Below, piece by piece: positions 12,179 to 40,782 of a stretch of 64,000 bases of DNA. Position 1 is the stretch's first letter. Each line of letters opens with the position of its first letter. The notes under the pieces are model-generated. The model saw only the letters and a list, made by a program, of their open reading frames with translations, was not told the origin of the DNA and ran no database searches. The stretch spans positions 5,073 through 69,072 of the forward strand of contig MEXP01000009.1 in NCBI GenBank assembly GCA_001773725.1, given 5' to 3'. The translations under genes and the position numbers were made by a program. The stretch is from Candidatus Amesbacteria bacterium RIFCSPLOWO2_01_FULL_49_25. GTDB lineage: Bacteria > Patescibacteriota > Microgenomatia > CAZETR01 > Amesbacteraceae.

Positions 12179-12194
12179 TCTAGTTGTAAATTTT

Positions 12195-13373: not shown

Positions 13374-14848
13374 GACAGTGGTCGGATTCTATTGAGGCGG
13401 ATCCGTTGGTGTTGGGTATGGGAATGTATTTAAACTGACGATCGGGAAAACGGGCAATGAATTGCTGGGCAAGTGTGGTTCGAGTATAAAATCTATCCCA
13501 ACATTCTTTAAATAGATTCTGCTCTTCTATAAGACTGTAATCAATGAGGTCAGGCCGCTTGGCTAATTCATTGGTAAATAATCCCCCTGCCCAGACCCGA
13601 CTCCAGAGGCGGGCGAAATCAACAGCTTCTCCAATTTGCCACATATCGGCTTTTTGAGGAGGGTTTTGCATTACGTAACTACTAAGATTTTTCGCCCATG
13701 AAAGAGTACGATTAAGTGAGGAACCGTACTGAATAAAACTGGTTACAGCCAATGCCAAAAGGAGAGAAACCGGTAATACTTTGACAATTCGAGGTAAATA
13801 CGAAAAATAATAAGAGATTGAAAATATGATCATGAGATAGTTTGCCAGTTGGTAATGGCTGAGCGGATATTTAGAGAATAGTAGAGTACCCGCAATGCCT
13901 GAGAATAATAGTGAAACAAATTCGGGAACAAGTTTACGTTTAAGTGCGGAAACAAAAATAGCGGAAATTACTCCGAAAGTGATAATGTACCCAGCTGCAA
14001 ATTCCCTGTTTATTAAGGTTTTGATTGAATCAAGGTATAGGGGCATATCAAAAAAGGTGTTTTTTCCTCCTCCATGAATTTCGGAGAAAGAAGCTAGTCT
14101 TAACGACCAACTGAATAACGCAAAATACTGGTTATGAATCGGCCAGGTTGCAATGAGGAAGCCGCACAGCGCCAAAAATGATGATATAAGCGTAAGAAAC
14201 GCTCGTTTGGGAAATGAGTACTTGACGTTTAACAATGGCAAGCTGCACGAGAAAGCGACGAGAAACAAGTTGGTAAACTTATTGCCGATAAGAATTCCAG
14301 ATATGAGGGGAAGTAATAACATTAAAAACAGGGGCTTGTTTTGCCGATAGTAAGCAAAAAGAAAGAAAAATGCAGAGATGATAAAGAAGGAAGTTGTTTC
14401 CGGAACGATAGCTGATCCGAAATAAAGAACTGGACTGTAGACGATGATGGCCAGCCATGTAAAAATTGCGCTAATTAATGACTTGGTTATTTTTAAAACC
14501 GAATAAACATAAATAAAGACAGCAGTTGATAGCAATACGCTTTGAAAAAGCCTAAGGTAGACCAGGACAAAACTGTAGTGAATGAATGACCAAGTGACGA
14601 AGGTTGTTTGAGCGAATAATTTAAGGTAAATCCGTAAAGGCCAGAGGAAAAAAGCAAGGAGGCGGATAGTCGGTGTACCGGGATGATCTACGTAATGAAT
14701 TAGGCCAGAGGAAATGTACGAAATTGCGTTCGCAGTATAAACTACATCCGGGTCGAGTAAAAAAACTGCCGATTCACTACCGGCGCGTGTAAGATAGTAT
14801 GTAGAAAAGGCTCCGGTAATGGCGGAAATTACGATAACGACAAAGAGT

Positions 14849-14877
<29 letters not shown>
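13360..14877 (-). CDS. Large polytopic membrane protein of unknown function with C-terminal soluble domain (possible GT-C transferase/polymerase)
   Basis: ~11 hydrophobic segments, 'HYVDHPGTP' loop after TM1, C-terminal ~130 aa hydrophilic; no confident family. Confidence 0.4.
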
Positions 14878-17160: not shown

Positions 17161-18138
17161 TCAGACTCGGGCGCGCCAGTAGTTGAGAGTGTCCAGAAGA
17201 GTTTGCTCGAATTTAATCCGAGGTTTCCAGCCTGTCTTGGACCGAAATTTGGAGCTGTCCCCGACCAACAAAGGAACGTCGGATGGGCGGATCCGGCTTT
17301 GATCTGCCACGATTTTTATTTTTTGGACACGACTATACTCCAGTAATTTGTCCAGCACGTTTTTTATCACCCAGGCTTTGTCTGAGCTGATGTTGTAAAC
17401 GTCCCCCGGGGTACATTTCAGGACTGATAGATAATATCCTCTCACCATGTCTCTGACGTCAGTAAAATCCCTTTGGGCATTTAAGTTTCCCACCATAATT
17501 CGGGAAGACTGGAGTTTTTTCTCTATTAAGGCGATTTGTTTGGCAAAGTTTGATGCGACAAAGACGTCTCCGCGTCGGGGACCTTCGTGATTAAAACCAC
17601 GAGTGCGAACAATTTTTAATCCATAACTTTTAAAGTACTGGTATCCCATAAAGTCCATGGCGGCTTTAGAAACGGCATAGGGAGAGAGGGGCCGCAGGGG
17701 ATTTGTTTCCTTGATGGGTGTCTCATGAGGCAAAACCAGTCCGTATTCTTCACTGGAGCAAGCTATTTGAATGACAGGGTCAATTTGGGCTGTTCTAACA
17801 GCCTCGAATAAATTGCATGAACCTATCACATTAGTTTCCAGTGTGGCTGACGGTGATGTCCAAGACGCTGGAACGTAACTTTGGCCGGCCAAGTGAAAAA
17901 TATAAGTTGGACGAATAAACATCATCACGTCCTGAATAGACCTGAGGTCCAACAAGTCTGCTTCAACCAGATGGATTCGCCCATTTAAGTGTTCTATGTG
18001 TTCTGAGCGGGACCGCCACCTGACGATGCCGTAGACTTCATATCCTTCTTTGAGAAGCAATTCAGCAAGGTGTGATCCGGCGAAGCCTGTTATTCCGGTA
18101 ATCAGGGTTTTCTTATGGTCTTTTTTTTGTTTTGGCAT
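17161..18138 (-). CDS. gmd: GDP-mannose 4,6-dehydratase
   Basis: 'KTLITGITGFAGSHLAELLLKEGYEVYGI', 'SPYAVSKAAMDF', 'GFNHEGPRRGDVFV', 'VGNLNAQRDFTDVRD', 'RPSDVPLLVGDSSKFRSKTGWKP' match Gmd hallmark blocks. Confidence 0.85.
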   Translation of the reverse strand: MPKQKKDHKKTLITGITGFAGSHLAELLLKEGYEVYGIVRWRSRSEHIEHLNGRIHLVEADLLDLRSIQDVMMFIRPTYIFHLAGQSYVPASWTSPSATLETNVIGSCNLFEAVRTAQIDPVIQIACSSEEYGLVLPHETPIKETNPLRPLSPYAVSKAAMDFMGYQYFKSYGLKIVRTRGFNHEGPRRGDVFVASNFAKQIALIEKKLQSSRIMVGNLNAQRDFTDVRDMVRGYYLSVLKCTPGDVYNISSDKAWVIKNVLDKLLEYSRVQKIKIVADQSRIRPSDVPLLVGDSSKFRSKTGWKPRIKFEQTLLDTLNYWRARV

Positions 18139-18466
18139 TTTTATAAGCGATATTTCTGGAAATTTCCTCTATTTGCCGTTGGAGAGATTTTATACCAACA
18201 TGATTCTGAAAACCCAGATATGCCAATATCATGAAGGCTACTATCGATAAAAGATCCATGGCTCGAGTGACAAACAGCCTGGCTAATATGGGATCTAGTA
18301 TCCGGGGGTTAAGAGCAAAATAGGTGAACGACACCCAAACCAATAACCAGTACACAAACTCTCGGCGAGTAATGTTCCCCTGTTTGCGATGGACGAACGC
18401 CACATATAGCATAAATGCGGCAAACATGACGGCAATGATTTGTATTCCTAGGAGAGCCTCCACCAT
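18113..18466 (-). CDS. Small 4-TM membrane protein, DUF2304-like
   Basis: 117 aa, hydrophobic helices with 'GNITRREFVYWLLVW' spacing; such proteins typically flank DPM1/GtrB-like GT2 genes. Confidence 0.5.
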   Translation of the reverse strand: MVEALLGIQIIAVMFAAFMLYVAFVHRKQGNITRREFVYWLLVWVSFTYFALNPRILDPILARLFVTRAMDLLSIVAFMILAYLGFQNHVGIKSLQRQIEEISRNIAYKNAKTKKRP

Positions 18467-19113
18467 ATAGTATTTGCAAGAATTTTTAGTGCGTCTATTA
18501 TGGACGTGCCTTTGTATTTGTCAATGTAGATGGGTTCGATGGGAAATTCAGTATATTTTAATAGGTGTTTATTTTTTCCCAGCTTGGCAATCATTTCCGT
18601 TTCAACACCATACCGAGGTGATGTCCATTTTAAAAGTTGATATGCCCTGAATGAAAGAGCCCTAAATCCGGATATCAAATCTGAAACGTATACGCCAAAG
18701 AGGACATTGATATAAATTGAGGCTAATTTATTGCCGAAGAGCCTGACGAATGGGGTGTGTAAAGACGGACGGCGCGAACCGATGACCACGTCAAACTTTT
18801 GATTGAGCAGATGGATAAACATGCTTATGTCTTGGGGTAAATGTTGGCCGTCTGTATCCATGAAGATTATAGCCTCGGCTTTGTGAGAGAAAGCGTATTC
18901 AGCGCCGGTTTTTAAGGCAGATCCTTTTCCCAGGTTGACAGGGTGACGAAGCAGAGTGACCGTTTTTGACTGGGTAGGGATTTGGACCGGTTGAACCGAA
19001 CCGTCATCGATAACCACAATATTTAAGTGGGGATGGAGTGAGAGGATAGCCGTTAAGACATCTACAAATCTAGCCCCCTCGTTGTAAACCGGCAATATTA
19101 ACCAAATGTTCAT
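18448..19113 (-). CDS. DPM1-like GT2 glycosyltransferase (polyprenyl-phosphate hexose synthase-like, soluble)
   Basis: 'IWLILPVYNEGARF', 'IVVIDDGSVQP', 'FMDTDGQHLPQDI'; start set at MNIWLIL. Confidence 0.8.
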   Translation of the reverse strand: MNIWLILPVYNEGARFVDVLTAILSLHPHLNIVVIDDGSVQPVQIPTQSKTVTLLRHPVNLGKGSALKTGAEYAFSHKAEAIIFMDTDGQHLPQDISMFIHLLNQKFDVVIGSRRPSLHTPFVRLFGNKLASIYINVLFGVYVSDLISGFRALSFRAYQLLKWTSPRYGVETEMIAKLGKNKHLLKYTEFPIEPIYIDKYKGTSIIDALKILANTIWWRLS

Positions 19114-19117
19114 ATTC

Positions 19118-20224
19118 TCATCCAACCCAATAGCCCCGAACAAACAGTGCTACCACCTCAAAAAAGAATAAAGCCAGGATCGCAAAAAAGAAGAGACGGA
19201 AGCGTGGTTTGGCGCTAGCTATCTGACCCAAGATAATAAAAGACGGAAAGCAGGCAAGTACATATCTTGGGAGAGAGACGAAACTGCCGGTAAAAGTGGG
19301 TACTAAGTAAGCTGCCAAATTAAAAATTATGTAAGAAGGGCGAATTTTTTTGAATGCAGATAAAATTGTTGTGAATAAAAACATTAAAGCGGTAACCAAT
19401 TCCAGCCAGAGGGTGTAATAAATAGGGTCGGTTTTGGTTACGGTAACCACCATTCTGGTGTACCGGTAAAAAACCTGAGGAAGAAGGATAATTCGCTCAC
19501 TTCTAAACTGCCCGTAGAGTTTTTGGACGTGAATGAAAGCCAGGGAATCACCGACAGTATTTTGCAAAAAAAGCATATATGAAATCAATCCTAAAGGAAC
19601 TAAAAAAGCTGGTAATAGGCCAATCAGGCTGCGCCTTTGCTGCCAAAACTCTAATAGAAGAGCGGGAAACATAAAAATACCCACGAAGCGAGTGTTGGCC
19701 GCTAAGGCGCCCAGGACGGCCGCAATCCACCAGCGGCGGGCACGAGCATAGTAAAAGGAGGACAATACTAAAAGTATAAATAAACTTTCGGTATATACAG
19801 CGCCAAAATAAAAACTGGTGGGAAATGCGAGCAGGGCTAAAAGCGAATACCTGGCCGCTGCTGAAGAATAATCTAACTCAATCAGACGAACAAAAAAAAT
19901 GCATGCAAATAGAAACGCAACGGAAGAAATTATTACCCCAGTTAGAGTGTCGTTTTTAATCTGGGGAATCAAGAGTTTCATAATATTCGGGTAAAGCGGG
20001 AAGAAGGCCTCTTCGGCATAGCCGTACCCGTTTTTGGCAATCCTGATGTAATGGTTGCCGTCGAAATTGGCCCGGGAGTATAAAAGTGGATTCTGCAAAA
20101 ATGTCTTTGTACCAATGCCCAAATAAGTTTCTCTCAGGGGCAATAGTTTGGGGGCCAATATGGCAATGACTATGATCGCTAGTTGCCAAATCGAGTAGTA
20201 TTTAATTATTGTCTTTGTCTTCAT
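19118..20224 (-). CDS. Polytopic membrane protein resembling PIG-V/Gpi18-type mannosyltransferase (GT76-like)
   Basis: 'ANFDGNHYIRIAKNGYGYAEEAFFPLYP' matches the W/FDxxHYLxIAxxGY...E..AFFPLxP signature of PIG-V family; ~9 TM. Confidence 0.5.
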   Translation of the reverse strand: MKTKTIIKYYSIWQLAIIVIAILAPKLLPLRETYLGIGTKTFLQNPLLYSRANFDGNHYIRIAKNGYGYAEEAFFPLYPNIMKLLIPQIKNDTLTGVIISSVAFLFACIFFVRLIELDYSSAAARYSLLALLAFPTSFYFGAVYTESLFILLVLSSFYYARARRWWIAAVLGALAANTRFVGIFMFPALLLEFWQQRRSLIGLLPAFLVPLGLISYMLFLQNTVGDSLAFIHVQKLYGQFRSERIILLPQVFYRYTRMVVTVTKTDPIYYTLWLELVTALMFLFTTILSAFKKIRPSYIIFNLAAYLVPTFTGSFVSLPRYVLACFPSFIILGQIASAKPRFRLFFFAILALFFFEVVALFVRGYWVG

Positions 20225-23653: not shown

Positions 23654-25233
23654 CGAAGTCCGACCGCACGCAAGGCGATTTGGCCATTGGGAAAATTAAT
23701 ATCGGCAAATCTTTCTATGCCTGGAATGTTTAAATCCTTCTCTGGCAGTTCGTACTGGCCACCGATAAAAAGAGTTGAGGTAAGCCCCCGGTCGGAAGGC
23801 CAATAAATGGGGCGGAATTCAAATCTGTCCAAGCGACTGACACTTCCGACGTCTCTTTGAGGATTGGCTTGAAACTTATTTTGAGATTGATATATTTTCG
23901 GGTCGATGCGCAGGTAGAAAAGAGTAAAAATATACGGTTGACCATATTGGGAAGTAAAAATGATTTTTTGATAGCGGGAATAATTATCGGCTGCCAACTT
24001 GAGCGCGGGTTTATAAGGAGATAGCCAGTCTGAGGCAAAGTAGTGGGGATAATGGACGAAGTAAAGGTCGAGGAGGTAAAGAAGAAAGAATAAAAGAACG
24101 GGAAAGTATAAGAATATAAGCAGTTTTTTTGACAATATCTTAGAGAGACCAAGTCCAGAGATGATGATTAATGGGATTATCATGGGTAAAGAGCGGACGC
24201 CGGAGACTATGTCCCGGGAAAGGGCGGAGGGAAGCGGAGCCAGGAGCAACCAGGCTAAGATGAGCCTGGAAAGAGGTGACTGAGATTTGAGAAGAAGAAT
24301 TATACCTATGAAGAGGGTTATTACTTCGGGAAGGTGGAGATAACCGTAATAAGGAGTGGAATGTCGTGGATTGGACCAGTCACCATTGATAAATAAAAAT
24401 TGGGACGAAAAGTGATTTAGATAACGTTGGGCTATTCCCCTGCCCTGATCCAGTAGTTCCGAATGAAATAAATAGTAGGAAAGATTTTTGGTGGGAGAGT
24501 TGTCTTGACGCATTATTTCGCTGACAACCGCATCGGGGCGAGTATAACCGAAGACGCTGAAAACCTTGAGGCGGCCAGACTCGGTCCCGATTTTTAGCAA
24601 TATTGGAAGCAGGATGAAAAGTATAACTAGAAAAGGTTTAATTAAGTTTTTCAATATCGGTCTGTAAATGAAAAGAAGGCTAATTATTAAAAGTGGGGTA
24701 AAAAGTTTGGCTCCCTGATAGGCCCAAAATGTCAAACCAAAAAACAATGACGAGGAGTAATTTTTTTTCTTTAGAAATAAAAGCACTGCCAGGGAGGTGA
24801 GAAGTAAGGATAAGTTTGCTTCCCAAGCCCCACGGGAAAAATGAATGGCCCAGGGGTTAATGGCTATCATCAGCGCTGATGAAAGAGAAAATGCCTTACC
24901 TTTCTGGATTTTAACAAGCAAGTAAATAACAGGGATTAGCAATGTTCCAAAAATAGCCGAGGGGAGGCGGGTGGCAAATTCGGTAAGACCTAAAACTTTT
25001 ATAATTGGGGTGGTAAAGTAAATGTATAAGCCCGGCTTATAATCACCGAACGATTTGAAGACGATAGGCATCACTTGGGAGTGTTCATCCCGTCCAGTCT
25101 TGAGTATTGAATATGCGTTGTATCCCAGGGCGGCTTCGTCCCAGGTAAATCCCAGTGGTCTGGAGTCCAGCCTGTGAATCCGCAAAAAAAGTCCAAAAAT
25201 TATAATGGGCAATAATATGATCAGCGGCTTCAT
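23650..25233 (-). CDS. GT-C-fold membrane glycosyltransferase, PMT_2/ArnT-like (family A)
   Basis: 'GFTWDEAALGYNAYSILKTGRDEHSQVMPI...FGLTEFATRLPSAIFG'; ATGA overlap with both neighbours. Confidence 0.8.
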   Translation of the reverse strand: MKPLIILLPIIIFGLFLRIHRLDSRPLGFTWDEAALGYNAYSILKTGRDEHSQVMPIVFKSFGDYKPGLYIYFTTPIIKVLGLTEFATRLPSAIFGTLLIPVIYLLVKIQKGKAFSLSSALMIAINPWAIHFSRGAWEANLSLLLTSLAVLLFLKKKNYSSSLFFGLTFWAYQGAKLFTPLLIISLLFIYRPILKNLIKPFLVILFILLPILLKIGTESGRLKVFSVFGYTRPDAVVSEIMRQDNSPTKNLSYYLFHSELLDQGRGIAQRYLNHFSSQFLFINGDWSNPRHSTPYYGYLHLPEVITLFIGIILLLKSQSPLSRLILAWLLLAPLPSALSRDIVSGVRSLPMIIPLIIISGLGLSKILSKKLLIFLYFPVLLFFLLYLLDLYFVHYPHYFASDWLSPYKPALKLAADNYSRYQKIIFTSQYGQPYIFTLFYLRIDPKIYQSQNKFQANPQRDVGSVSRLDRFEFRPIYWPSDRGLTSTLFIGGQYELPEKDLNIPGIERFADINFPNGQIALRAVGLR

Positions 25234-26777
25234 AGTTCCTTAATAATGAATGCGGGTTTGGAGTCAAGGAAATTGATGCGGGTAAGGACGGTGCCGGGAG
25301 TTTCGTTGTCGGGGCTGGAAATTACCAGATACTTAGGCCCTATCGGTAAAGATGCCACTGCTTGGGACATTTCCCAATCATTGACGAATTTTATTTTGTC
25401 CAGTTTATTAACCCAATACCAGTTGTCGTGAAAATCCCAATTTTTTGATTTGGAGAAATTAGCGGGTTCCCATGGCCAATAGAAAGCAACAAACTCATGG
25501 GGTTCTCCATAGCGCTTAGTGAAAACGATTTGGTCGTATTGACTATAGTGATCTTTGACAAATTGAACGGCCTCTTTGTAGCCATACTGCCAGGCCCATG
25601 AATAGCGGGTTTGGTAGTTTGCAGATACGGGATTGATGTAATACTCGAGGCTAAGCAACAGAATAACTGGAAGAGCTATTTGCAAAACGTTGAATTTTTT
25701 GGCCGCTGTCCAAATTCCCATCGAGGTTACCACTATGGTGGCGGGAAGCATGGTTATGGCGCGAAGAACATGGGGCGAATCGCGAGTGAGAGAGCCGGGA
25801 ATGGGGGCTAAGAGAAGCCACACGATTATCAATTTGAAATTTGATTTTTTAAATTTGAAAAGCAGTGCGATTAAGCCCAGGTAAAAAAAGGGTAGGGCAA
25901 CCAAGTAAAGCAGACCATAGTTGGGAATGCTGAATTGGTAGTGAGAACCGCCGGAAATAAATAAGAATTTAGGGTTGAAATGATTTAGATAATTAACAGA
26001 GAAACGATAGGCCAAATAGGTAGCTTTGTTGTAAAGAAGGCGACCCCCGGGTCGACTTCGCAGCTGATTAATTTGGACGGTTGCTCCTTCATCCAAAAGA
26101 GTCAGCCACTTAAACCTAGCTTGGCCGGACGGGGAAAGAAGCTGAATGAAAACCGGGATGAATAGTAAAAGTGTAACTGCGACCGTAAGAAAGTTAATTT
26201 TGACATTTTTTCGATTAAGCAATAAATAAGAAAACAAGAATAAGGGTGTAAAAATGCGAAAACTATTGTAGGTCCAGGCAGAGAGACCTAAAAGGAAAAT
26301 CCCTAAAAACAAGCGGCGATAAAGAAGCAGGGTGGCCCCGAGGGTAAATAGAAGTATAGCTAAATTTGCCTCAACGGCAACACGAGACAAAAACAGCGGC
26401 CAAGGGGAAATTGCGACGAGCAGGGCAGTAAGGATAGCCATAAAACGAGAAGAGACCCGGCGAGAAAGAAGGTAAACTGCGGCTATCATAAGAATGCCGG
26501 AAACTATGGATGGGAAGCGAACTCCGAGTGGGTTGAGACCGAATATTGAAATGGAGGGAATGGCAGAATAAATATATCCAGGGAGTTTGAAGTCTCCGTA
26601 GGCACGAAAAATTGTGGGCAGAATAGACCCCCACTCGTCCCGGCCTGTTTTGAGAAGAGAATAAGCGTTGTAGCCTAAAGAGACCTCGTCCCAATTAAGA
26701 CTGGGGGGGAACTGGTAAATATAAATGAGACGAAAAAACGCTCCCAGTAAAATCAACAGGATTAAGTGCCTAGGCAC
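25230..26777 (-). CDS. GT-C-fold membrane glycosyltransferase, PMT_2/ArnT-like (family A)
   Basis: 'SLNWDEVSLGYNAYSLLKTGRDEWGSILPT...FGLNPLGVRFPSIVSG'. Confidence 0.8.
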   Translation of the reverse strand: MPRHLILLILLGAFFRLIYIYQFPPSLNWDEVSLGYNAYSLLKTGRDEWGSILPTIFRAYGDFKLPGYIYSAIPSISIFGLNPLGVRFPSIVSGILMIAAVYLLSRRVSSRFMAILTALLVAISPWPLFLSRVAVEANLAILLFTLGATLLLYRRLFLGIFLLGLSAWTYNSFRIFTPLFLFSYLLLNRKNVKINFLTVAVTLLLFIPVFIQLLSPSGQARFKWLTLLDEGATVQINQLRSRPGGRLLYNKATYLAYRFSVNYLNHFNPKFLFISGGSHYQFSIPNYGLLYLVALPFFYLGLIALLFKFKKSNFKLIIVWLLLAPIPGSLTRDSPHVLRAITMLPATIVVTSMGIWTAAKKFNVLQIALPVILLLSLEYYINPVSANYQTRYSWAWQYGYKEAVQFVKDHYSQYDQIVFTKRYGEPHEFVAFYWPWEPANFSKSKNWDFHDNWYWVNKLDKIKFVNDWEMSQAVASLPIGPKYLVISSPDNETPGTVLTRINFLDSKPAFIIKEL

Positions 26778-28365
26778 GGTATTTTTTTTTGGCGAGAATT
26801 AACCAAGAACCTGCGCTTAGTAATGTAAGTGAAGATACCAGATTGCCCATGAGCCTGACAAAGGAATCTTTAAATTCCAGTCGGATATCGTGCCAGCCTT
26901 GAGGCACGTCTAATGCAATTAGGCCAGTCTCAGGCTGGATGAGGACTTTTTGTTCTATTCCGTCGACTATTGATGTCCAACCCGGGAAAAAAACTTGAGG
27001 GAATATAGTAAGAGCAGACTGTGATTGAATGAACAAACGGTAGTTTCCACTGTGAGCTGAAAAGTGAGCTATAGATACAAAACCATCTCCCGCACTTATG
27101 GAGGGGAGCGATGGGGCAAAGGATTGGGGAAGACGAGGGGCGGATTTGGGCCAAAAGTCTGAAAGGGCAGATGACCGCTGTTCATCCCAAAGTTTGCCTG
27201 AGAAGTACTGGGTGTCGTTGAGATTCAGCCAAATATCTGGGCCAAAAAAATTGGCGCTGAGTAACAACAGAAAAGTAGATGAGAAGATAAGTGTAAGTTT
27301 GGGAGAGAAAAGTTTGGTGAGAACACCGGCTGTAAGAGATAAAAAGAAGGTTGACATGGAGAGAAACCGCCAGGGAAATTGGACAAAAGGCAGGCCAGGT
27401 ATAATTTTCCAAAACACCTCAGATTTACCGTGGGTGAGAAATAACGCGATCAGGGCCAGAATAACGAATAATGAAGTGGGAATTATGTGTTTTTTTGACT
27501 TTTTGACGAGAAAAGCGAAGGGTACCACTACTAGAGCAATTATCCAGTGGAGGTGGCCAATTGAGAAACTCATGGTGTCGTTGGGCCCCCAGTTGGAGCC
27601 GCCGTAGCCCCAGAAGCGGGAAAGAAAAAGCTGACTTAAAGTCGTCCAATGAAGACTATAATCGTAATAACCGGCGGTAGTTTGGGTGAGAGTTACCAAG
27701 TTACTTTCAAAAATTACCGGTAAAAGATAAAAAGAACTCAAGACCAGAGATAATAAGCCGGCAGGGATAAATTTCCAGTCCCAGCTTCTAACCAGCCACC
27801 ATATACCCATAAATGGCAGAAACATAAATAATGAGAGGTTGTGGGTGATAAGGAGAAGAAATAGAGAGAAGGAAAAGAGAAGGTATTTTTTCTTTTCGAT
27901 AAATAACAGAATGAGAGGGAAAAATACGAAGGACAACGCTTCCGGGAGAGCACCTCTTACCCAGACGTCGACTGCCCGGTATGGGGCGTATGTGTAAAAC
28001 AAAGCGCTAACAAGGGCTCCATCACTCCCCCAGAATTCTTTTGCCAATAAGTACATGGAGATGCCTGACAAGACTAATGAAAGAATGAAAACTGATTTGA
28101 CACTGTCTAGGACGGGGAAACCGGAAAGGCGGAAGATTGTTCCCAGCCAATAGGGGAGTTGGCCATAGTAGTTGAAGAGGGGCTCGCCGTAGCCTAGACC
28201 TGCGTCCGGAGCCCAGCGGCAAGGAAAAATACCTTCGGCAGTACATTTATCGAATTCGTACTGGCGAAAGACATGAAAGTCATGCATGGTATAAATCCCC
28301 GGCCGGAGCATGAGCGCGAACGCCGGAATTGTGAGAATGATCAGGAGGAGGATTTTTTTGGCCAT
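26770..28365 (-). CDS. Polytopic membrane protein family D (YfhO/PTPS-related-like GT-C candidate)
   Basis: 'MHDFHVFRQYEFDKCTAEGIFPCRWAPDAGLGYGEPLFNYYGQLPY', 13+ TM; paralog of 52415-54061; start re-set to MAKKILL (28365). Confidence 0.5.
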   Translation of the reverse strand: MAKKILLLIILTIPAFALMLRPGIYTMHDFHVFRQYEFDKCTAEGIFPCRWAPDAGLGYGEPLFNYYGQLPYWLGTIFRLSGFPVLDSVKSVFILSLVLSGISMYLLAKEFWGSDGALVSALFYTYAPYRAVDVWVRGALPEALSFVFFPLILLFIEKKKYLLFSFSLFLLLITHNLSLFMFLPFMGIWWLVRSWDWKFIPAGLLSLVLSSFYLLPVIFESNLVTLTQTTAGYYDYSLHWTTLSQLFLSRFWGYGGSNWGPNDTMSFSIGHLHWIIALVVVPFAFLVKKSKKHIIPTSLFVILALIALFLTHGKSEVFWKIIPGLPFVQFPWRFLSMSTFFLSLTAGVLTKLFSPKLTLIFSSTFLLLLSANFFGPDIWLNLNDTQYFSGKLWDEQRSSALSDFWPKSAPRLPQSFAPSLPSISAGDGFVSIAHFSAHSGNYRLFIQSQSALTIFPQVFFPGWTSIVDGIEQKVLIQPETGLIALDVPQGWHDIRLEFKDSFVRLMGNLVSSLTLLSAGSWLILAKKKYRA

Positions 28366-29573
28366 AGGGTGAACCAGGTAAATAAATTGATGACGCTTAG
28401 GGCTTTGGTGAAAATGGGAGTGTAAAGGGCGATGGCGAAGGGCATGGTTGGAGCGAACCACATGTTGTATTGATTGGCCAAAAAGGTAAAGGACAGAACG
28501 GCGTATTGAATCCAGATTTTGCGGCCGATAACTATTAGCCAGGACATAAGGGGAAACAGGGGGTACATGTAGCGCTCGTGCATACGAACGGAAAAGAGAA
28601 AGAAACCAAAGTAGACGATCAGTAATTGACTGACTAAATTATGCTCAGAGGGGTTTTTCCAAATGGATCGAAGAGTAACTGCAAATATCAATAACAATAG
28701 GAACACTGAAATTATATTGGCGGGGATGGTGAGAAAGAGCGAGGTGTCAGGAACTAGATCTATAGGGAAGAAGACGTGCCAGAAATTGAAGGCGTTGACG
28801 GTGATAAATGGTGATTCTCCCGGCAAGATCCGATTCAAATAGAGTTTGGTTAGCCAAAACGGAAGATCGAGTCTGGGATGGAAGGGAAAAAATAACAGTA
28901 ACGAGGACGCGCCGACCGACGCCAGATAAGTCCAGAAGTTTTTAGGAAATTTCCTGATTGCATAAATTGTGAATACTATTAAGGCTGGAGACCATGAAGC
29001 TTTGGTGACGAGTGAAGTCCCCAACAGAAATCCGGAAAGGACCAGGCGTTTTTCGAAGAGAAAGATCAGGCTCCAAACGGCCAAGGCGGCGACGATACAA
29101 TCGTTTTGCCCCCAAAGAGCGGAGTTGTACCACAAAGGAGGGTTAAGCAAATAGACTAAGCCGACTAGCTGGGAAACCTTGCTGGATTTACCAATTTTGA
29201 TAATAGCGGCAAAAAGAGCTATGTCCCCTAAAACGGAGGGCAGCTTGAGGCTGACTACGTCACCCCATCTTTGCCACCACCAAACTAATGTCGAGGGGAA
29301 AAAGGGGATTTTCAAATTGAGCTGCCAGAATAATTTGTTACCAAAGTCGTTGAGCTGATATGAAAGTGTATAAAGATAAACACTGCCGGCTGGTTGGTTG
29401 GGGCGGCTCTGAGGCCAGAAAACGGATCGCGGTAAATCATAAAAATCGACAAGGCCGAGTTTGGAGGCATTCCCGGCCCAATTCCAGCCGTTATGCAAAT
29501 CACCGTGTTTAGTGAATGTCGACACCCACAATCGCCAAGCAATTAACAAGACAATGAGAATTTTATATTTCAT
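28341..29573 (-). CDS. Polytopic membrane protein family E (unknown; possible GT-C)
   Basis: 'FTKHGDLHNGWNWAGNAS' loop after TM1, ~10 TM; shares 'FT[SK]H[PG]D' loop with 40769-41932. Confidence 0.4.
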   Translation of the reverse strand: MKYKILIVLLIAWRLWVSTFTKHGDLHNGWNWAGNASKLGLVDFYDLPRSVFWPQSRPNQPAGSVYLYTLSYQLNDFGNKLFWQLNLKIPFFPSTLVWWWQRWGDVVSLKLPSVLGDIALFAAIIKIGKSSKVSQLVGLVYLLNPPLWYNSALWGQNDCIVAALAVWSLIFLFEKRLVLSGFLLGTSLVTKASWSPALIVFTIYAIRKFPKNFWTYLASVGASSLLLFFPFHPRLDLPFWLTKLYLNRILPGESPFITVNAFNFWHVFFPIDLVPDTSLFLTIPANIISVFLLLLIFAVTLRSIWKNPSEHNLVSQLLIVYFGFFLFSVRMHERYMYPLFPLMSWLIVIGRKIWIQYAVLSFTFLANQYNMWFAPTMPFAIALYTPIFTKALSVINLFTWFTLWPKKSSS

Positions 29574-32651: not shown

Positions 32652-34472
32652 TTATATTCTACCTTTTGCCCATTGCTCTTGCCAAACACTAAAGGCAAAA
32701 ACCATCCAAAGAGTCCGCAGGTGGTTTTGAGACCAAGCCGCATCCACAAACACCCGAGGGAAGGCGTCTGAAATATCGCGACGATAAACGTAATCGGATA
32801 CTATGGTTTTGAGCGGACCAGAAATCCAGTCCGAAAGGGGTAGACCGAAGCCTTTTTTTGGTCGGTTACGGATGTTTTCGGGAAGTTTGCCTTTGAGTAA
32901 ATTGCGTAAAGGCAATTTGGTGCTAAAAAGGCTAGTGAAAGGAGAAGTTTGGGAAAAAGCAAAGCTGATAATTTCCCGGTCAAGATAGGGTACGCGAACT
33001 TCCAGGCCATTAAACATGGAGGCTCGATCTGACTTGAGAAGCATGGCGTCGCGCAAATACGTTTGAAAATCCAGAAGTTGAGCGGTTTTGACCTGGTCTT
33101 GGGGGTATGGAAGTGAGAAAAGCTCTTTAATTGGAGAGGTTTTAAATAACGCCTCTGGTGCAATTTGGCCTGTGGTGAAAAAAACCATCCACTGGAGTTG
33201 ACGGTGAAGTACCGGCAGACCAAGTCCAGAAAAAAAATTGGCAAGCGTGTCTCCAAATTTATAACTGGATGAAAAGAGGGGGAATTTTACAGCAGGTATA
33301 TTTTGAGCCAGATTGACCAACAAGGATTTAAAACTAGATGGAAACCAGGGCAGAAGGTTGGCAAAGCGGTGGCCCAAATATGTAGGGTAACCGGCGAATA
33401 CTTCGTCCCCCCCGTCTCCGGATAGGGCAACTTTGACATGAGAGCTGGCCAGGCGGCAGACGTGGTAGGTGGGAAACAGTGACGGATCGGCAAAAGGTTG
33501 ATCCATGAGTTTTTGGATGACGGGAAAATCGGTGAGTAGATCGGAAGCGGAATACGGCTGGTCAAAATGGCGAGTACCCAAAATCTTGGCTACTTGGGCT
33601 GCATGAGAACCTTCATTGAAGTCCTGATGAGCGAAGGAGATGGAAAAACTTTTAACTTCGTGTTTTTGCCGCGTAAGGTAATAGGCCAGGATTGAGGAAT
33701 CCAGGCCGCCGGAAAGAAGCAGACCAACGGGCACGTCGGCGATGGCTTGGCGCGAGACGACGGTATCCAACATAGAATCCAGATCTGCGGGCTCCGGGTT
33801 GGGCTGGGAAAAAAGGTCGTAATATTGATGTATTTTCAGGCCAGATTGGGAAAACGTAAGAGTGCTGCCCGGGGGAAGCTGGAAGATGTCCTGGTAAATA
33901 GTTCTAGGAGTTGGGACATAACCTAAGAAGGTGTATAAAAAAAGAGAGTCGGGATCGATTTTTGGGGTCTGAATAACAGACAAAATAGTTTTAATCTCGG
34001 AGCCGAAGATTAATTTGCTGCCTTTATGGTGATAAAACAGGGGTTTGATGCCGGCGTGATCACGGGCCAAGAGCAAGCTTTGTTTCTTCTCATCCCATAG
34101 AGCAAAAGTAAACATTCCGTTTAATTTTTGGAGAAAGTCCTTGCCCGAATCTTCATATAGGTGAACCAAGGTTTCGGTATCCGAAGTAGTTTTTAGCTTA
34201 TGACCATTTTTTATAAGCTGCTCCCGAATCAATTTGTAGTTGTAAATTTCGCCATTGAATACGACAGTTAATGAGCCGTCCTCGTTGCTGATAGGCTGAT
34301 CGCCGGTTTTTAAATCGATGATTTTCAGACGGCGGATGCCCAGACCCACGTGGTTTTTTACAAAACTGCCGCCAGAGTCCGGCCCGCGGTGAACAATTGT
34401 TTTAGCTATTTTCCCGATTTGGGAAGAAATGACTGGGGATGAAAAATCAACAATGCCAGCAATTCCACACAT
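32652..34472 (-). CDS. Asparagine synthetase (glutamine-hydrolysing) family amidotransferase (AsnB/WbpS-like)
   Basis: N-terminal 'MCGIAGIV' Ntn-glutaminase nucleophile, 'LLSGGLDSS' PP-loop ATP pyrophosphatase motif. Confidence 0.85.
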   Translation of the reverse strand: MCGIAGIVDFSSPVISSQIGKIAKTIVHRGPDSGGSFVKNHVGLGIRRLKIIDLKTGDQPISNEDGSLTVVFNGEIYNYKLIREQLIKNGHKLKTTSDTETLVHLYEDSGKDFLQKLNGMFTFALWDEKKQSLLLARDHAGIKPLFYHHKGSKLIFGSEIKTILSVIQTPKIDPDSLFLYTFLGYVPTPRTIYQDIFQLPPGSTLTFSQSGLKIHQYYDLFSQPNPEPADLDSMLDTVVSRQAIADVPVGLLLSGGLDSSILAYYLTRQKHEVKSFSISFAHQDFNEGSHAAQVAKILGTRHFDQPYSASDLLTDFPVIQKLMDQPFADPSLFPTYHVCRLASSHVKVALSGDGGDEVFAGYPTYLGHRFANLLPWFPSSFKSLLVNLAQNIPAVKFPLFSSSYKFGDTLANFFSGLGLPVLHRQLQWMVFFTTGQIAPEALFKTSPIKELFSLPYPQDQVKTAQLLDFQTYLRDAMLLKSDRASMFNGLEVRVPYLDREIISFAFSQTSPFTSLFSTKLPLRNLLKGKLPENIRNRPKKGFGLPLSDWISGPLKTIVSDYVYRRDISDAFPRVFVDAAWSQNHLRTLWMVFAFSVWQEQWAKGRI

Positions 34473-36319: not shown

Positions 36320-37066
36320 TTATTTTTTCCGGAAAACAAATATATGAGGGCGGAGGCCATGAATAAATAGAGGAAGATCTTTAACAAGTGTAAATTTTGA
36401 TGAAAGGGTGTGGTGAATGAGGTTGGTTTCTTGGGATAAAATAACCATTAACCCTTCAGGCTTGAGCCACTTAAGTGCGTTGTTAGCAAACGATGAATAA
36501 ACTCTCTCATTATCTACATGTTTTCCCGATCGGATGCCAAATGGTAGATTGGTAATTATTTTATCGATGCTAGTTACTCCAAGCTTTAGATCTTTAACGT
36601 CTGAGTGAATTACAATCAGCTTATCGGGACTAATATTTGCGGCGATTGCGTTTTTTCTAACGCAAGCAGTCGAGTAACTACTAATGTCTGATGCGATAGC
36701 AAGCCGTGCTTGATAATAGAGAAGTGCACTTATGGGAATTGTCCCCCCACCGCAAAAGGGATCCAAAACAGAATCGGCGGGGGTGATTTGGGCAAGCTCA
36801 CACATGACACAAGCCAGAGACGGGTTTATTCCTGCTGCGAGCATGCACACTCGCCAGTTACGCTGATAGAGTTTAATTGAGACGTGTTGATCGGTAACTG
36901 AAAGCGCAGTTTTGAGGAACTGGAAATCGGCCGGTGACCTGTCTGATTCAAAGGAGATAATGCTAACCTTGGTATGAAGCTCAACACTGGGAGAAAGCCT
37001 TGGAGAAAGTTGTTTTAATACTATTTCCTCTGTACCTTGAATTATAGTAATATCAATTTTTGACAT
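36320..37066 (-). CDS. UPF0020/RlmL-Trm14-like SAM-dependent methyltransferase (putative RNA N2-G/N6-A type, with N-terminal THUMP-like region)
   Basis: 'VLDPFCGGGTIPISAL' (motif I) and 'ITNLPFG' ([DN]PP[YF]-type motif IV); start re-set to MSKIDI (37066). Confidence 0.55.
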   Translation of the reverse strand: MSKIDITIIQGTEEIVLKQLSPRLSPSVELHTKVSIISFESDRSPADFQFLKTALSVTDQHVSIKLYQRNWRVCMLAAGINPSLACVMCELAQITPADSVLDPFCGGGTIPISALLYYQARLAIASDISSYSTACVRKNAIAANISPDKLIVIHSDVKDLKLGVTSIDKIITNLPFGIRSGKHVDNERVYSSFANNALKWLKPEGLMVILSQETNLIHHTLSSKFTLVKDLPLFIHGLRPHIFVFRKK

Positions 37067-37976
37067 CTTGACCCAAGAATCGATGTGATGTCCAAATAAT
37101 AACTGCCAGAATGGCGGCTTTAAACCAACCGTTGTACCAAATCCCCGATTCAGTTCGATAACGTTCCATTGAAGGAGTTGTATTGGGGAGGTGCAACATT
37201 TTTCTACACGGATAGACAACTGTTTCAATGAGGTTCCGATATTTTAGATTGGATAATTTTTTAGAACTTTGACCATGTTCGTGAATGATGGTAATTTGAG
37301 GATTGTAGTAGACTTTTAATTTTGCACGCCGAATTCGGCGACAATAATCCATATCTTCAAAATACATAAAAACTTCCTCTGTAAATTTCCCCACTTTAAC
37401 GATCGTAGTTTTAGGGAAAAACATGCAGGCACCAGAGACTGAAGAGACTTCAGCAATACCAGGTGGAGAATATTTAGCTGTCAGGCCTTTTTGGCCAAGC
37501 CAGTATTCGCGAAAAGTAGTGATTATCGATGGTTCGAGAAAAACTGAGCCCTGGGGCGTGCCGTCGGGATTGATAAATTTTGGTCCCATGACGCCCAAAT
37601 CGGAATGCGAATAGACAAACTCCAAGGATCGGGTAAAGAAATCTTTGGGCAGACGGGTGTCTGGATTGAGGAGAAGTATGTAGTCTCCCCTACTCTGGCG
37701 CAATCCAATATTAACGCTTTTGGGGAAACCCAGGTTTTTGGTATTGGCAATGACATTGGTTTGGGAAAAAGATTTGGCAATTTTTAATGAGTTGTCTGTC
37801 GAAGCGTTATCGATGACAATTATTTCCAAGTTTGAATATTTGGTAGTAAATACTGAATCGAGACAGCGTTTCAATGAATCGGCTACATTCCAGCTGACTA
37901 TAATTACGGATATGAGCGGAGTGCTGTCAGGCATAAAGATTTGGCAAAACTTGGGCATATATTTTGATTTTTTCAT
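37053..37976 (-). CDS. GT2 family glycosyltransferase
   Basis: 'LISVIIVSWNVADSLKRCL', 'IIVIDNASTDNS', 'LLLNPDTRL'. Confidence 0.85.
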   Translation of the reverse strand: MKKSKYMPKFCQIFMPDSTPLISVIIVSWNVADSLKRCLDSVFTTKYSNLEIIVIDNASTDNSLKIAKSFSQTNVIANTKNLGFPKSVNIGLRQSRGDYILLLNPDTRLPKDFFTRSLEFVYSHSDLGVMGPKFINPDGTPQGSVFLEPSIITTFREYWLGQKGLTAKYSPPGIAEVSSVSGACMFFPKTTIVKVGKFTEEVFMYFEDMDYCRRIRRAKLKVYYNPQITIIHEHGQSSKKLSNLKYRNLIETVVYPCRKMLHLPNTTPSMERYRTESGIWYNGWFKAAILAVIIWTSHRFLGQDVKN

Positions 37977-39285: not shown

Positions 39286-40782
39286 TTATGACCTGCGGGT
39301 GCGGTTCTGGATGGTAATCTCCCCAAACTGCTGTTGATGGTTGAATGTGGAGAAGTACTTTTCTTTGTCTAATATCTTGTCGACTAAGTCAACCGGGATT
39401 CCCTGGGACGGCTCGATGATGACAAAGACTAGAGGTATGGACGGCGAGAAAGAAAGATTATTTCCCAATTGGCCAATCTGGTTCTCTCCATGCCAGTAAG
39501 GTAAATAGCCGTATTTGGTTTTACCGTACCAGTTGAATAGATACGACCAGGTGGTGTTGATATAAAGCGGGGAGGTGACGGAATTGAAAGTAAACGGCCT
39601 TCCCTGGGCCTGACTGTACATATAATCGATGGCATCAAGTTCATGGTGCAAGGTCATGGTCTTTTGAATGGCAAATTCGGTCAGGCCTTGAGAATTTTTT
39701 TGTTTGATATAAGACAGGTTGGACAAGACTATAAAAACAATGATTGTGGCTTTTACCCACGAAGATTTGAGCCGAGACAGAAAATAAACCGTAAAAAGGA
39801 TGACTAACATGCCAAGTCCAGTGTGAATATATGGGGTGCTGATTCCGCCAAATATGAGAGGCGGGGCAAATGAAATTAAACCCAAAGAAAATGTGGCCCA
39901 CCAAGACGGATGGGGCTTAACAAAGACAAAAGCTATCACGAAGCCAAGTACAGCGAGTGTGGGTTGAGTGGGGAAAGTATTGAGACTTATCAGACGTTTA
40001 AATTGGTAAAGGGAGGTGTTTATAAGAGTAAGAGGATTAACTTTGAGTTGTGAATAAGTTGTACGGTTAAATAATAAATTCGCAGGGCCGGAGCGACTGG
40101 GAAAACCGAATTTTATTTCCGAAATTAACATAGTTGATATTGAGAGAGTAAAAAATGATAGTAAAAGTAAGAGTTTTTTTGAGGTAATAGACAATTTTTT
40201 GAGTAAGATCAAAATTAATATGACAGCTGAGTGATAGATAAAAATAAAATTGGATTGGAAGCTCAGGCCCAGTCCAAGACCGGCAAGAATCGGGCCGATG
40301 GTTGAGCGGCGTTGCCATTGCCAAAGACCGTAATATAAAAGAGGCACGAAGAGGATGGCTAAAGCGGTGTTGGTCAGATAGATAGCGTGCTGGGTTTGTT
40401 CGTAAGAGACGGCCGTTAAAAGTGAAGCCAAGGTTGCTAATGACTTGGATTGGAAAAGCCGAAGGCCGATAAAATATGCCAGAAAGATGGCGAGTGAGTT
40501 AATAAAAGACAGCCAGCCGGCTGCTACTGCCGGACTTCCCCGTCCCAACCAATAACCCGGGGCAATAACATAGTAATAGAGAACGCCGTGAAAAAAGTCC
40601 CGAGTGGAAGTAGGTGGTCCCTGAATTTTTATGTCCCCGTGAAGAAGCTCTTGAATGGTATAAGCGTCACGTGCCTGGTCGTAACTGAACATTAAATCTC
40701 CCCCGGGTAGGTAGCGGATCCGGATCAAAAACCCCAGGAAAAAAATAGTTAATACTAACCAATATCGCTTAAGAAAGCTCAT
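39286..40782 (-). CDS. GT-C-fold membrane glycosyltransferase, ArnT-like (family B, 'D[EQ]xRDA' loop)
   Basis: 'FSYDQARDAYTIQELLHG' loop after TM1, 'YYYVIAPGYWLG', ~12 TM; paralog of 57745-62071 genes. Confidence 0.7.
   Translation of the reverse strand: MSFLKRYWLVLTIFFLGFLIRIRYLPGGDLMFSYDQARDAYTIQELLHGDIKIQGPPTSTRDFFHGVLYYYVIAPGYWLGRGSPAVAAGWLSFINSLAIFLAYFIGLRLFQSKSLATLASLLTAVSYEQTQHAIYLTNTALAILFVPLLYYGLWQWQRRSTIGPILAGLGLGLSFQSNFIFIYHSAVILILILLKKLSITSKKLLLLLSFFTLSISTMLISEIKFGFPSRSGPANLLFNRTTYSQLKVNPLTLINTSLYQFKRLISLNTFPTQPTLAVLGFVIAFVFVKPHPSWWATFSLGLISFAPPLIFGGISTPYIHTGLGMLVILFTVYFLSRLKSSWVKATIIVFIVLSNLSYIKQKNSQGLTEFAIQKTMTLHHELDAIDYMYSQAQGRPFTFNSVTSPLYINTTWSYLFNWYGKTKYGYLPYWHGENQIGQLGNNLSFSPSIPLVFVIIEPSQGIPVDLVDKILDKEKYFSTFNHQQQFGEITIQNRTRRS

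Follow-up and report, generated by a model that had tools for sequence, protein, structure and literature searches.

Two paralogous GT-C-fold membrane proteins of an Amesbacteria glycan locus are candidate extracytoplasmic glycosyltransferases

Introduction

A 64-kb (64,000-nt) stretch of contig MEXP01000009.1 (positions 5,073 to 69,072 of the forward strand; assembly GCA_001773725.1) from Candidatus Amesbacteria bacterium RIFCSPLOWO2_01_FULL_49_25 encodes two membrane proteins that share a striking N-terminal module, and the question that this locus raises is what these two proteins do. The whole stretch is referred to here as the window, and the two genes as A (26770-28365) and B (52415-54061). 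An initial annotation, made from the sequence alone, had described them as paralogues that resemble YfhO-type or PTPS-related membrane glycosyltransferases of the GT-C type, the second copy being paired with a Wzx flippase. Both open reading frames (ORFs) were found where it had placed them, on the minus strand, which it had left unstated; they encode proteins of 531 aa (A) and 548 aa (B).

GT-C enzymes are polytopic membrane proteins with 7-13 transmembrane (TM) helices and a GT-C helical core (PMC11127046). They take part in multi-component transmembrane glycosylation, in which a GT2 enzyme charges polyprenyl phosphate, a GtrA- or Wzx-type flippase exports the product and the GT-C enzyme transfers the sugar outside (PMC8035078). 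Such sets of a lipid-linked-sugar GT-C enzyme, a GT2 and a flippase are already well established in Firmicutes, Enterobacteria and mycobacteria. Bacteria of the Candidate Phyla Radiation (CPR), or Patescibacteria, are abundant, mostly uncultured and dependent on cell contact, and their surface chemistry is almost unknown; our literature search found no relevant paper on GT-C enzymes or glycosylation in CPR or Microgenomates.

Here, we present evidence that A and B belong to a large CPR family with the GT-C fold. We propose that they are extracytoplasmic, lipid-phosphate-sugar-dependent glycosyltransferases of a multi-component surface-glycosylation system, a reading that comprises a monophosphate donor, external transfer and membership of such a system, and that we hold to be moderately probable.

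Results

A and B are paralogues within a large CPR family

A and B are 40% identical over 527 aa (BLASTP, E 1e-111), a similarity that is far beyond chance. The paralogy proposed in the initial annotation is correct, and the identity of about 45% given with it was too high. Among the GT-C paralogue groups of the window, A and B form a pair of their own. The longest ORF of A extends to a GTG at 28461, and the N-termini of homologues favour the ATG at 28365 ('MAKKILLL'). Proteins identical to A (P0121) and B (P0001) are already public, where they are labelled hypothetical.

Five loci of the Davies/Blackburnbacteria group (L024, L025, L027, L029 and L031) each carry a B-like and an A-like gene in the same orientation, 46-50% identical to B and 40-45% identical to A, respectively. 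The B-like gene is the upstream one, at a distance of 0.1-5 kb, and in L024 and L029 the two are directly adjacent. Because B-like and A-like genes are same-strand neighbours there, these loci hint that A and B were born by tandem duplication. A GtrB-like GT2 gene lies directly upstream in these loci, which have no Wzx gene within 7 kb; this suggests that the Wzx linkage described below is specific to one lineage of the A/B family.

Relatives are numerous. Word-indexed searches returned at least 2,804 with B as the query and at least 1,524 with A, with Candidatus Amesbacteria, Microgenomates and Patescibacteria as named hosts, and an exhaustive profile search found 20,403 representatives of 50%-identity clusters at E <= 1e-3 (6,716 at E <= 1e-30). 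Among the hosts seen, those with names are confined to CPR lineages, almost all of the Microgenomates group. A translated search of annotated plasmids gave partial matches of 22-26% only, mostly unannotated.

Where does this family stand among known ones? The window proteins are under the Pfam cut-offs, yet their relatives do match: among 40 aligned relatives, 31 match PF10131 (PTPS_related; E <= 0.01, best E 1.2e-13), 14 match PMT_2 and 11 match PF09586 (YfhO; best 1e-11), the YfhO model itself matching neither A nor B. Many relatives carry a precomputed PF10131 assignment, PF10131 or PF09586 is often present in relatives, and the fusion members described below score up to 53 bits on PF10131. 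PTPS_related and PMT_2 belong to the GT-C clan of Pfam, CL0111 (PMC7801869). In NCBIfam nothing was found for A or B; two of the 40 relatives weakly match the PgfM1 model and one is a marginal match to archaeo_STT3 (E 0.0019). By curated thresholds A and B stand outside PF10131 and PF09586, yet their family plainly overlaps PF10131, and its relation to YfhO is that of a superfamily or sister family. A genuine link to 6-pyruvoyl-tetrahydropterin synthase (PTPS) was rejected, as no PTPS enzyme domain was matched and the name is historical.

Six relatives are longer chains: P0241 (1093 aa), P0242 (1116 aa), P0272, P0285, P0248 (3329 aa, with six matched stretches) and P0282 each carry at least two GT-C units of the family, or a family unit and a PMT_2 unit. 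They could be true tandem fusions or gene-call read-throughs of overlapping genes.

B is predicted to have a GT-C fold with twelve TM helices

An AlphaFold2 model of B was built on the family alignment of 40 sequences and compared with the PDB by Foldseek, and its helices and strands were assigned by DSSP. The model has a pLDDT of 90.7 and a pTM of 0.91 and fits the definition of a GT-C enzyme given above. All 14 PDB matches at E <= 1e-3 are GT-C enzymes that act on lipid-linked sugars (STT3, AglB, AftD), and weaker matches, with E up to about 0.03, are ArnT, AftA, ALG12, PglB, Pmt4, Emb and DPY19. When the family was compared by hhalign with ten PMT_2-type paralogues of the window, the two profiles aligned over 191 columns (94% probability, E 1.5e-7); the conserved His-Asp of the family fell two columns from an invariant Asp-Glu, and R138 fell on an invariant Arg. 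Matches to GT-C families are thus found, and the fold matches, the hhalign comparison and the Pfam matches of relatives together bear out the resemblance to YfhO-type or PTPS-related GT-C proteins. That A and B are GT-C-fold enzymes is, in our judgement, highly probable.

A crude hydropathy predictor undercounted the TM helices (8) and was replaced by the helix map of the model together with a charge-bias test. By the model and the distribution of charge, B has 12 TM helices and not the 13 or more claimed earlier. In the model, TM1 (residues ~2-20) is followed by a first external loop (residues 23-85), which holds the N-terminal module and two or three short helices, then by ten further TM helices, an external beta-sandwich and a final TM helix, the C-terminal anchor (residues 518-547; 52421-52510, minus strand). 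The beta-sandwich (residues 420-515, with DSSP strands at 436-514; 52517-52804, minus strand) is a candidate acceptor-binding domain; its Foldseek matches to glycoside hydrolase beta-sandwich domains are weak and non-significant (ranks 38-50).

For both A and B we predict, on the basis of this model, 12 TM helices with both termini in the cytoplasm. Across the 40 sequences, the fraction of K+R is 0.296 in the seven segments assigned to the cytoplasm versus 0.079 in the six external ones, and the invariant polar residues all map to external loops or to the ends of TM helices. The module is predicted to be outside rather than cytoplasmic by this K+R bias, by the co-variation of two Cys residues and by GT2 domains fused to the N-terminus, both of which are described below.

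Conserved residues cluster in the first two external loops

The N-terminal motif reported in the initial annotation was found in A and B with minor deviations, B having one extra residue between MHD and FRQ. In B, the module (residues 27-73; 53843-53983, minus strand) reads GYGFGYPLFNYY and follows the pattern 'MHDD..FRQ..KC..PCRW.PD..GYG.PLFNYY..LPY'; it contains a candidate catalytic His-Asp (residues 28-30; 53972-53980) and the pair Cys42/Cys50. The same first external loop of A, located by translation and alignment, spans residues 27-72 (28150-28287, minus strand) and reads 'MHDFHVFRQYEFDKCTAEGIFPCRWAPDAGLGYGEPLFNYYGQLPY'. Over residues 27-73, A and B are 61% identical, versus 40% overall, and only the second external loop equals this (62%). 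The second loop (residues 128-143 of B; 53633-53680, minus strand), 'APYHSVDFWVRAAVNE', has the pattern 'APY..VD.WVRGA..E' with the near-invariant R138 and E143 and is the top-conserved stretch of the family (column conservation 0.81).

The motif 'C..PCRW' is present in 119/120 and 114/120 close relatives, and H28, D30, R35, C42, C50, R51 and W52 are invariant alignment columns. In a census of aligned family domains, position 28 is His in 346/376 (Gln in 24) and position 30 is Asp in 358/378 (Asn in 11, Glu in 4), and the remaining polar residues are kept in 378/383 (R35), 383/386 (R51), 390/393 (R138) and 389/393 (E143).

The two Cys residues of the module come and go together. Among the 382 aligned domains with a residue at both positions, both Cys are present in 334, neither in 48 and a single one in none, a count that is uncorrected for phylogeny; at least one joint loss (P0139) falls inside the A-type clade. 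Since paired presence or absence is a signature of a disulfide, this pattern provides an independent argument for an external, oxidising location of the module. Judging from the sequences, Cys42 and Cys50 probably form a disulfide that braces the first external loop.

Which residue could be catalytic? The Asp proposed to be catalytic in solved GT-C enzymes comes after TM1 (PMC11127046), which makes the His-Asp of A and B the natural candidate. It starts 5-8 residues past TM1, depending on the TM1 end chosen, and provides the conserved acidic residue of a GT-C enzyme just past TM1 in the first external loop. By analogy with the solved enzymes, we infer that the His-Asp takes the catalytic acid/base position in A and B.

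GT2 enzymes are neighbours and fusion partners of the family

Upstream of B, 55568-56314 (minus strand) encodes a soluble GT2 of the polyprenyl-phosphate sugar synthase type (GtrB/ArnC/DPMS-like; Glycos_transf_2, 1.9e-23), a candidate maker of a lipid-P-sugar. It has no TM segment, and its best PDB matches are GtrB (1.1e-12), ArnC (4e-11) and the dolichol-P-mannose synthase DPMS (6e-8). A scan of one genome per species gave 465 stretches encoding relatives, and locus counts were taken from the best 80, all B-type, which come from Ames-, Davies-, Woese-, Blackburn-, Shapiro- and Collierbacteria and other Microgenomates. In 60/80 species, B has a homologue of this GT2 no more than 2.6 kb upstream.

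GT2 and GT-C are also joined in single chains. Five independent 50%-cluster representatives of 821-832 aa (P0245, P0246, P0253, P0263 and P0273) carry a GT2 domain of the nucleotide-sugar type at the N-terminus. In P0246, whose GT-C part resembles B, the GT2 domain is 49% identical to 55568-56314 from end to end (E 1e-81). The fusions prove that the N-terminus is cytoplasmic and that GT2 and GT-C work in one pathway; they do not prove that the one makes the donor of the other. P0246 is the only one of the five that points specifically to a donor-synthase partnership.

B lies in a conserved five-gene cassette

The conserved gene order around B is GtrB-like GT2, 54070-like PMT_2 GT-C, B, Wzx and 49406-like GT-C. 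Directly upstream of B, after an 8-nt spacer, 54070-55575 (minus strand) encodes a PMT/PMT_2-type GT-C protein with a 'DE' motif after TM1, which is above cut-off for both models (PMT_2 27.0 bits, PMT 24.3 bits); its counterpart lies directly upstream of B in 54/80 species. Downstream, 50952-52430 (minus strand) encodes a Wzx-type flippase of the MOP family (Polysacc_synt_3, E 1.6e-45). The 16-nt overlap between this gene and B, reported in the initial annotation, was confirmed base by base, with the Wzx ATG at 52430-52428 and the B TAA at 52417-52415.

The pairing of a flippase with the transferase, also proposed there, holds in part. Of the 73 informative species, 59 have a Wzx gene downstream of B in the same orientation, which in 27 of these 59 loci is immediately adjacent to B. 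The linkage persists as protein identity falls from 76% to 40%, and it is seen in Woese-, Collier- and Shapirobacteria as well as in Amesbacteria. Wzx is, however, tied more closely to the 49406-like GT-C gene, which it adjoins in 40/52 loci versus 26/52 for B. Other genes separate B from Wzx in 20 loci where Wzx is still beside the 49406-like gene, and 13 B-type loci have no Wzx within 7 kb. The flippase is a cassette member, although the gene that accompanies it most constantly is not B.

This most constant neighbour, 49406-50992 (minus strand, 528 aa), has no Pfam domain, nor do its 120 best homologues, and it has at least 1,267 relatives (CPR). Its model (pLDDT 89.3) is shaped like an oligosaccharyltransferase (OST): Foldseek matched it to DPY19 (5e-8) and STT3 (TMq 0.52), with AglB and PglB also among the top matches. 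By sequence or profile it aligns with two GT-C alignments at 0.5-34% probability, so that its GT-C fold is seen by structure prediction only. Its C-terminal globular domain weakly resembles that of AglB, and an invariant 'GPNGHDGxWH' follows TM1; it has no WWDxG motif. It could be an oligosaccharyltransferase-like CPR enzyme, and it is arguably more novel than A and B.

Many genomes that carry the cassette (loci L003-L005, L007, L010, L012, L069, L073 and many others), some of them complete chromosomes of 0.6-0.8 Mb, go by the title 'uncultured Gammaproteobacteria bacterium' (ERP119705, binchicken and SRP co-assemblies). These titles are probably placeholder mislabels, because the gene content and size are Patescibacteria-like.

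A lies in an array of GT-C genes

The block around A runs AsnB-like, two PMT_2, GT87/Alg6-like, A, three further large membrane proteins, GT2, GT4 and PIG-V-like. A Microgenomates contig has the same order and an Amesbacteria contig has part of it; neither has a flippase nearby. Upstream of A, with a 25-nt overlap, lies the GT87/Alg6-like GT-C gene 28341-29573 (minus strand; GT87 28.7 bits), which is also the neighbour in L081. Downstream, with an 8-nt overlap, lies the PMT_2-type GT-C gene 25230-26777 (minus strand; PMT_2 28.4 bits), an order shared by L081-L083. GT2 genes are thus present in the array of A as well.

An asparagine-synthase-type glutamine amidotransferase (32652-34472, minus strand; Asn_synthase, E 1e-73) heads the array, as it also does in L081; its role may be the amidation of a sugar or peptide moiety within the glycan.

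The window is one glycan locus

Nearly all genes of the window are on the minus strand, and almost every one overlaps or abuts its neighbour. The gene content is that of a single glycan locus: a Wzm/Wzt ABC exporter, about 17 GT2, two GT4, a GDP-mannose dehydratase, an epimerase, methyltransferases, the AsnB-like amidotransferase and one Wzx. GT-C-type membrane proteins account for about 20 of about 57 genes (2732-62071), several of them below curated thresholds. Named by their first coordinates, they form the paralogue groups {2732, 4506, 6951}, {21986, 23650, 25230, 29570, 31069, 45464, 47195}, {39286, 57745, 59190, 60617} and {26770, 52415}; 54070, 49406, 28341 (GT87/Alg6-like) and 19118 (PIG-V-like) are single. 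Such a density of GT-C genes is unusual for an organism whose relatives have complete chromosomes of 0.6-0.9 Mb.

The exporter genes (112-2392, minus strand) encode a Wzm-like ABC2_membrane protein and a Wzt-like ATPase with a weak Wzt_C match, in a locus that also has the Wzx 50952-52430. No candidate flippase besides this Wzx was found in the window, and no match to an initiating phosphoglycosyltransferase (PF00953, PF02397) or to Wzy was found in any window ORF scanned. Three membrane proteins, 13360-14877 (minus strand, 505 aa), 40769-41932 (minus strand, 387 aa) and 62788-63828 (plus strand, 346 aa), have no Pfam, PDB sequence or GT-C profile link. They were considered as phosphoglycosyltransferase or Wzy candidates, an identification that was not achieved; they could be a polymerase, a ligase or more GT-C enzymes. 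The last of them is among the few plus-strand genes, and its sequence resembles a small GT87/PIG-V-style protein.

A 117-aa ORF with several hydrophobic segments (18113-18466, minus strand), which had escaped the initial 150-aa ORF cut-off, matches DUF2304 (E 5e-16) and follows a 231-aa GT2 (18448-19143, minus strand) with a 19-nt overlap. Elsewhere, 11985-13373 (plus strand) shares about 190 nt with the GT2 gene 11120-12178 of the minus strand; as the GT2 domain of this plus-strand ORF begins only at residue 228, its true start is probably well past the first start codon.

Discussion

Starting from paralogy, fold, conservation, predicted topology, synteny and fusions, which were established directly, we infer catalysis, the type of donor, the role of the flippase and the acceptor. 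We argue that A and B would be catalytically active GT-C enzymes of a large, uncharacterised, Microgenomates/CPR-centred branch that is partly captured as PF10131/PF09586. Their active site would lie at the outer face of the membrane and would be made up of the first external loop, with the His-Asp, and the second, with R138 and E143. The donor would most likely be a polyprenyl-phosphate-linked sugar, made in the cytoplasm by a GtrB/ArnC-like GT2 (55568-56314 in the case of B) and carried to the outside, possibly by the Wzx-type protein encoded next to B. The sugar would then be moved to an extracytoplasmic acceptor, a surface glycan or a Ser/Thr-rich protein, and the external beta-sandwich before the C-terminal anchor may help to hold this acceptor. 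B would act in the five-gene cassette and A in the array of consecutive GT-C genes. That the donor of B is flipped by the Wzx of the cassette is a tentative suggestion, somewhat less probable than the proposal as a whole; a MOP-family flippase has been proposed for undecaprenyl-P-ribofuranose (PMC11127046).

Several observations weigh against this proposal. A has no Pfam match (E <= 0.1), and neither A nor B reaches a curated Pfam or NCBIfam cut-off, the matches of B to PTPS_related (21.5 bits, cut-off 26.4) and PMT_2 (23.5 bits, cut-off 26.1) being sub-threshold. The papers found report no biochemically characterised PF10131 member, and one of them gives the domain as 'function unknown' (PMC7801869). 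The TM-scores of B to solved GT-C enzymes are just 0.35-0.45 and a profile search of PDB sequences with the A/B family detected nothing relevant, which together imply that a close structure is not yet solved. In the profile alignment, two columns separate the His-Asp from the DE motif, so that their equivalence is positional, not exact, and the Cys covariation statistic takes no account of phylogeny. As for the partners, four of the five fusions carry a GT2 that is not GtrB-like and is closest to 37053-37976, a type whose PDB neighbours are the chain-elongating chondroitin and heparosan synthases and GalT1. The window ORFs scanned include no GtrA-type gene. Intergenic gaps do not exceed 309 bp, and the idea that one of them hides a GtrA-type flippase was rejected, since the only small membrane ORF found, 18113-18466, is DUF2304. 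Finally, no flippase lies within 8 kb of the A-type gene in three related loci, and Wzx adjoins the 49406-like gene more often than it adjoins B.

These last points bear on whether B and Wzx are linked in function at all. The adjacency could reflect operon packing and inheritance only, with B independent of this flippase and Wzx serving the 49406-like GT-C or the main polymer pathway, an explanation that we find rather doubtful, though the least so of the alternatives. The closer association of Wzx with the 49406-like gene, the 20 loci in which B is separated, the 13 B-type loci that lack a Wzx within 7 kb, the lack of one near A, and the fact that nearly all window genes overlap or abut their neighbours would all be expected of packing. 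Packing accounts less well for a same-strand downstream linkage that persists from 76% to 40% identity across several candidate phyla, for the 16-nt overlap, which suggests translational coupling in this genome, and for Wzx being the only flippase candidate found in the window.

What could the acceptor be? With the same chemistry, A and B could O-glycosylate Ser/Thr-rich surface or membrane proteins, as PgtC2 and PgfM1 do. These two members of the YfhO family O-glycosylate Ser/Thr-rich disordered regions (PMC12041528); the weak PgfM1 matches (2/40) and the YfhO matches (11/40) among relatives are in line with such a role, as are the structural neighbours Pmt4, STT3 and DPY19, which are protein glycosyltransferases. 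The locus itself speaks for a polysaccharide: it is rich in genes of that type (Wzm/Wzt, GDP-mannose dehydratase, about 17 GT2, two GT4), no candidate gene for a Ser/Thr-rich substrate was seen in the window, and the beta-sandwich weakly resembles accessory domains of carbohydrate enzymes. We consider a protein target unlikely, a little more so than mere packing of B and Wzx.

The main rival to our proposal concerns the donor. A and B might use a polyprenyl-diphosphate-linked oligosaccharide flipped by Wzx and transfer it en bloc, as an oligosaccharyltransferase, ligase or polymerase. The top structural matches of B are STT3 and AglB, B overlaps a Wzx-type gene and Wzx classically flips undecaprenyl-diphosphate-linked repeat units (PMC11127046), and four of the five fusions join GT2 types that build lipid-linked oligosaccharides by chain elongation. 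Against these stand the absence from A and B of a WWDxG-type motif and of an STT3-like C-terminal domain, in place of which they have the beta-sandwich; the lack of an initiating phosphoglycosyltransferase or Wzy among the window ORFs scanned; the 49406-like GT-C, which is the tighter Wzx partner and a better candidate for the role; the Pfam and profile relatives PMT_2 and YfhO, which use monophosphate donors (PMC8035078); and the one fusion with a GtrB-like GT2. On balance, transfer en bloc by A and B appears improbable.

That A and B are non-catalytic GT-C-like proteins, such as acceptor-binding or scaffold subunits for neighbouring GT-C enzymes, is very improbable: B is flanked by other GT-C enzymes and a review speculates that some systems may split catalysis and acceptor binding between proteins (PMC8035078), but H28, D30, R35, R51, R138 and E143 are almost invariant across hundreds of sequences, a pattern typical of enzymes, and A and B carry an external domain of their own.

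We return to our proposal of monophosphate-dependent external transfer. The analysis behind it gives a fold, a topology, candidate catalytic residues and conserved partners to a family of about 20,000 clusters whose members are mostly labelled 'hypothetical' or, misleadingly, 'PTPS-related', and it offers a testable cassette (GT2, two GT-C, Wzx and an OST-shaped GT-C) for reconstituting CPR surface glycosylation. Richer questions are raised by the whole locus, with its roughly 20 GT-C genes, and by the Pfam-less OST-shaped GT-C that is coupled to Wzx. A bolder idea, which we regard as unlikely, is that the A/B family, with its probably disulfide-braced His-Asp loop, is one station of a CPR-specific line that builds a complex surface glycan or glycoprotein largely outside the membrane, and that A and B found a new, biochemically distinct glycosyltransferase family. 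If this were true, about 20 GT-C enzymes, fed by several GtrB-like GT2, would work with one Wzx and an OST-shaped, Pfam-less GT-C in one 64-kb locus, a bacterial counterpart, in genomes of about 1 Mb, of the ALG/OST pathway in the lumen of the endoplasmic reticulum or of mycobacterial arabinan assembly.

How do A and B compare with known systems? In their mode of action they would resemble GT-C enzymes of the YfhO, PMT_2 or Gtr type. PF10131 is the best Pfam match of the family, and one relative is named '6-pyruvoyl-tetrahydropterin synthase-related protein' (NCBI). The two share a multi-TM core from the juxtamembrane helix on, profile positions 1-303 corresponding to B residues 65-384; the matches cover only positions 1 to ~310 of the 621-position model. 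As the match begins at residue 65, TM1 and the part with the His-Asp and the two Cys are outside the matched region.

The nearest characterised relatives are those of the YfhO family. YfhO of B. subtilis, S. aureus and L. monocytogenes is involved in GlcNAc transfer to teichoic acid (PMC8035078), and the streptococcal members PgtC2 and PgfM1 act in protein O-glycosylation with a GtrB-type GT2 (PMC12041528). Like A and B, they are GT-C proteins with a large external domain; they work with a GtrB/CsbB-type GT2 and a flippase (PMC8035078, PMC12041528), partners for which the B cassette holds candidates. Positions 756-822 of the YfhO profile, at its C-terminal end, are matched by one relative of the A/B family. 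Unlike the 835-position YfhO profile, A and B have only ~530-550 aa; they have a C-terminal TM anchor after the beta-sandwich, and their hosts are CPR bacteria, not Firmicutes.

The B cassette recalls GacI/GacJ/GacK/GacL of Streptococcus pyogenes, in which a soluble GT2 and the Wzx-type GacK serve side-chain glycosylation (PMC8035078). Both bring together a Wzx-type flippase, a GT-C and a GT2 that is soluble and has no TM segment, and the window GT2 18448-19143 with the small DUF2304 membrane protein 18113-18466 that follows it resembles GacI/GacJ. The B cassette differs in that it groups three distinct kinds of GT-C enzyme and two to three GtrB-like GT2 around one Wzx, whereas GacL is of the PMT_2 type; next to 55568-56314, the GT2 of the cassette, we found no small helper protein.

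With the PMT_2/PMT enzymes (ArnT and the protein O-mannosyltransferases; GT83/GT39), A and B share homology from TM1 to about TM6, an acidic residue after TM1 and an Arg in the second external loop; B has its sub-threshold PMT_2 match, and ArnT and Pmt4 are among its fold matches. A and B differ in having His-Asp instead of Asp-Glu, an added Cys pair with 'CRW..PD..GYG.PLFNYY', and another C-terminal half with the beta-sandwich. With STT3/AglB/PglB (GT66), they share the GT-C core and the best Foldseek E-values (7e-5 to 7e-4, TMq 0.35-0.43), whereas sequence identity is 10-15% and the STT3-type C-terminal domain is absent. An assignment of A and B as STT3-type oligosaccharyltransferases was rejected, as neither translation has a WWD/WWDxG motif; the neighbour 49406-50992 is more OST-like than either (TMq up to 0.52).

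We would therefore single out as distinctive of the A/B family its His-Asp in place of Asp-Glu or DxD, its co-varying Cys pair with 'CRW..PD..GYG.PLFNYY', its beta-sandwich with TM anchor, and its restriction to CPR among named hosts. A and B are an uncharacterised branch of a well-known GT-C type, not a new kind of system.

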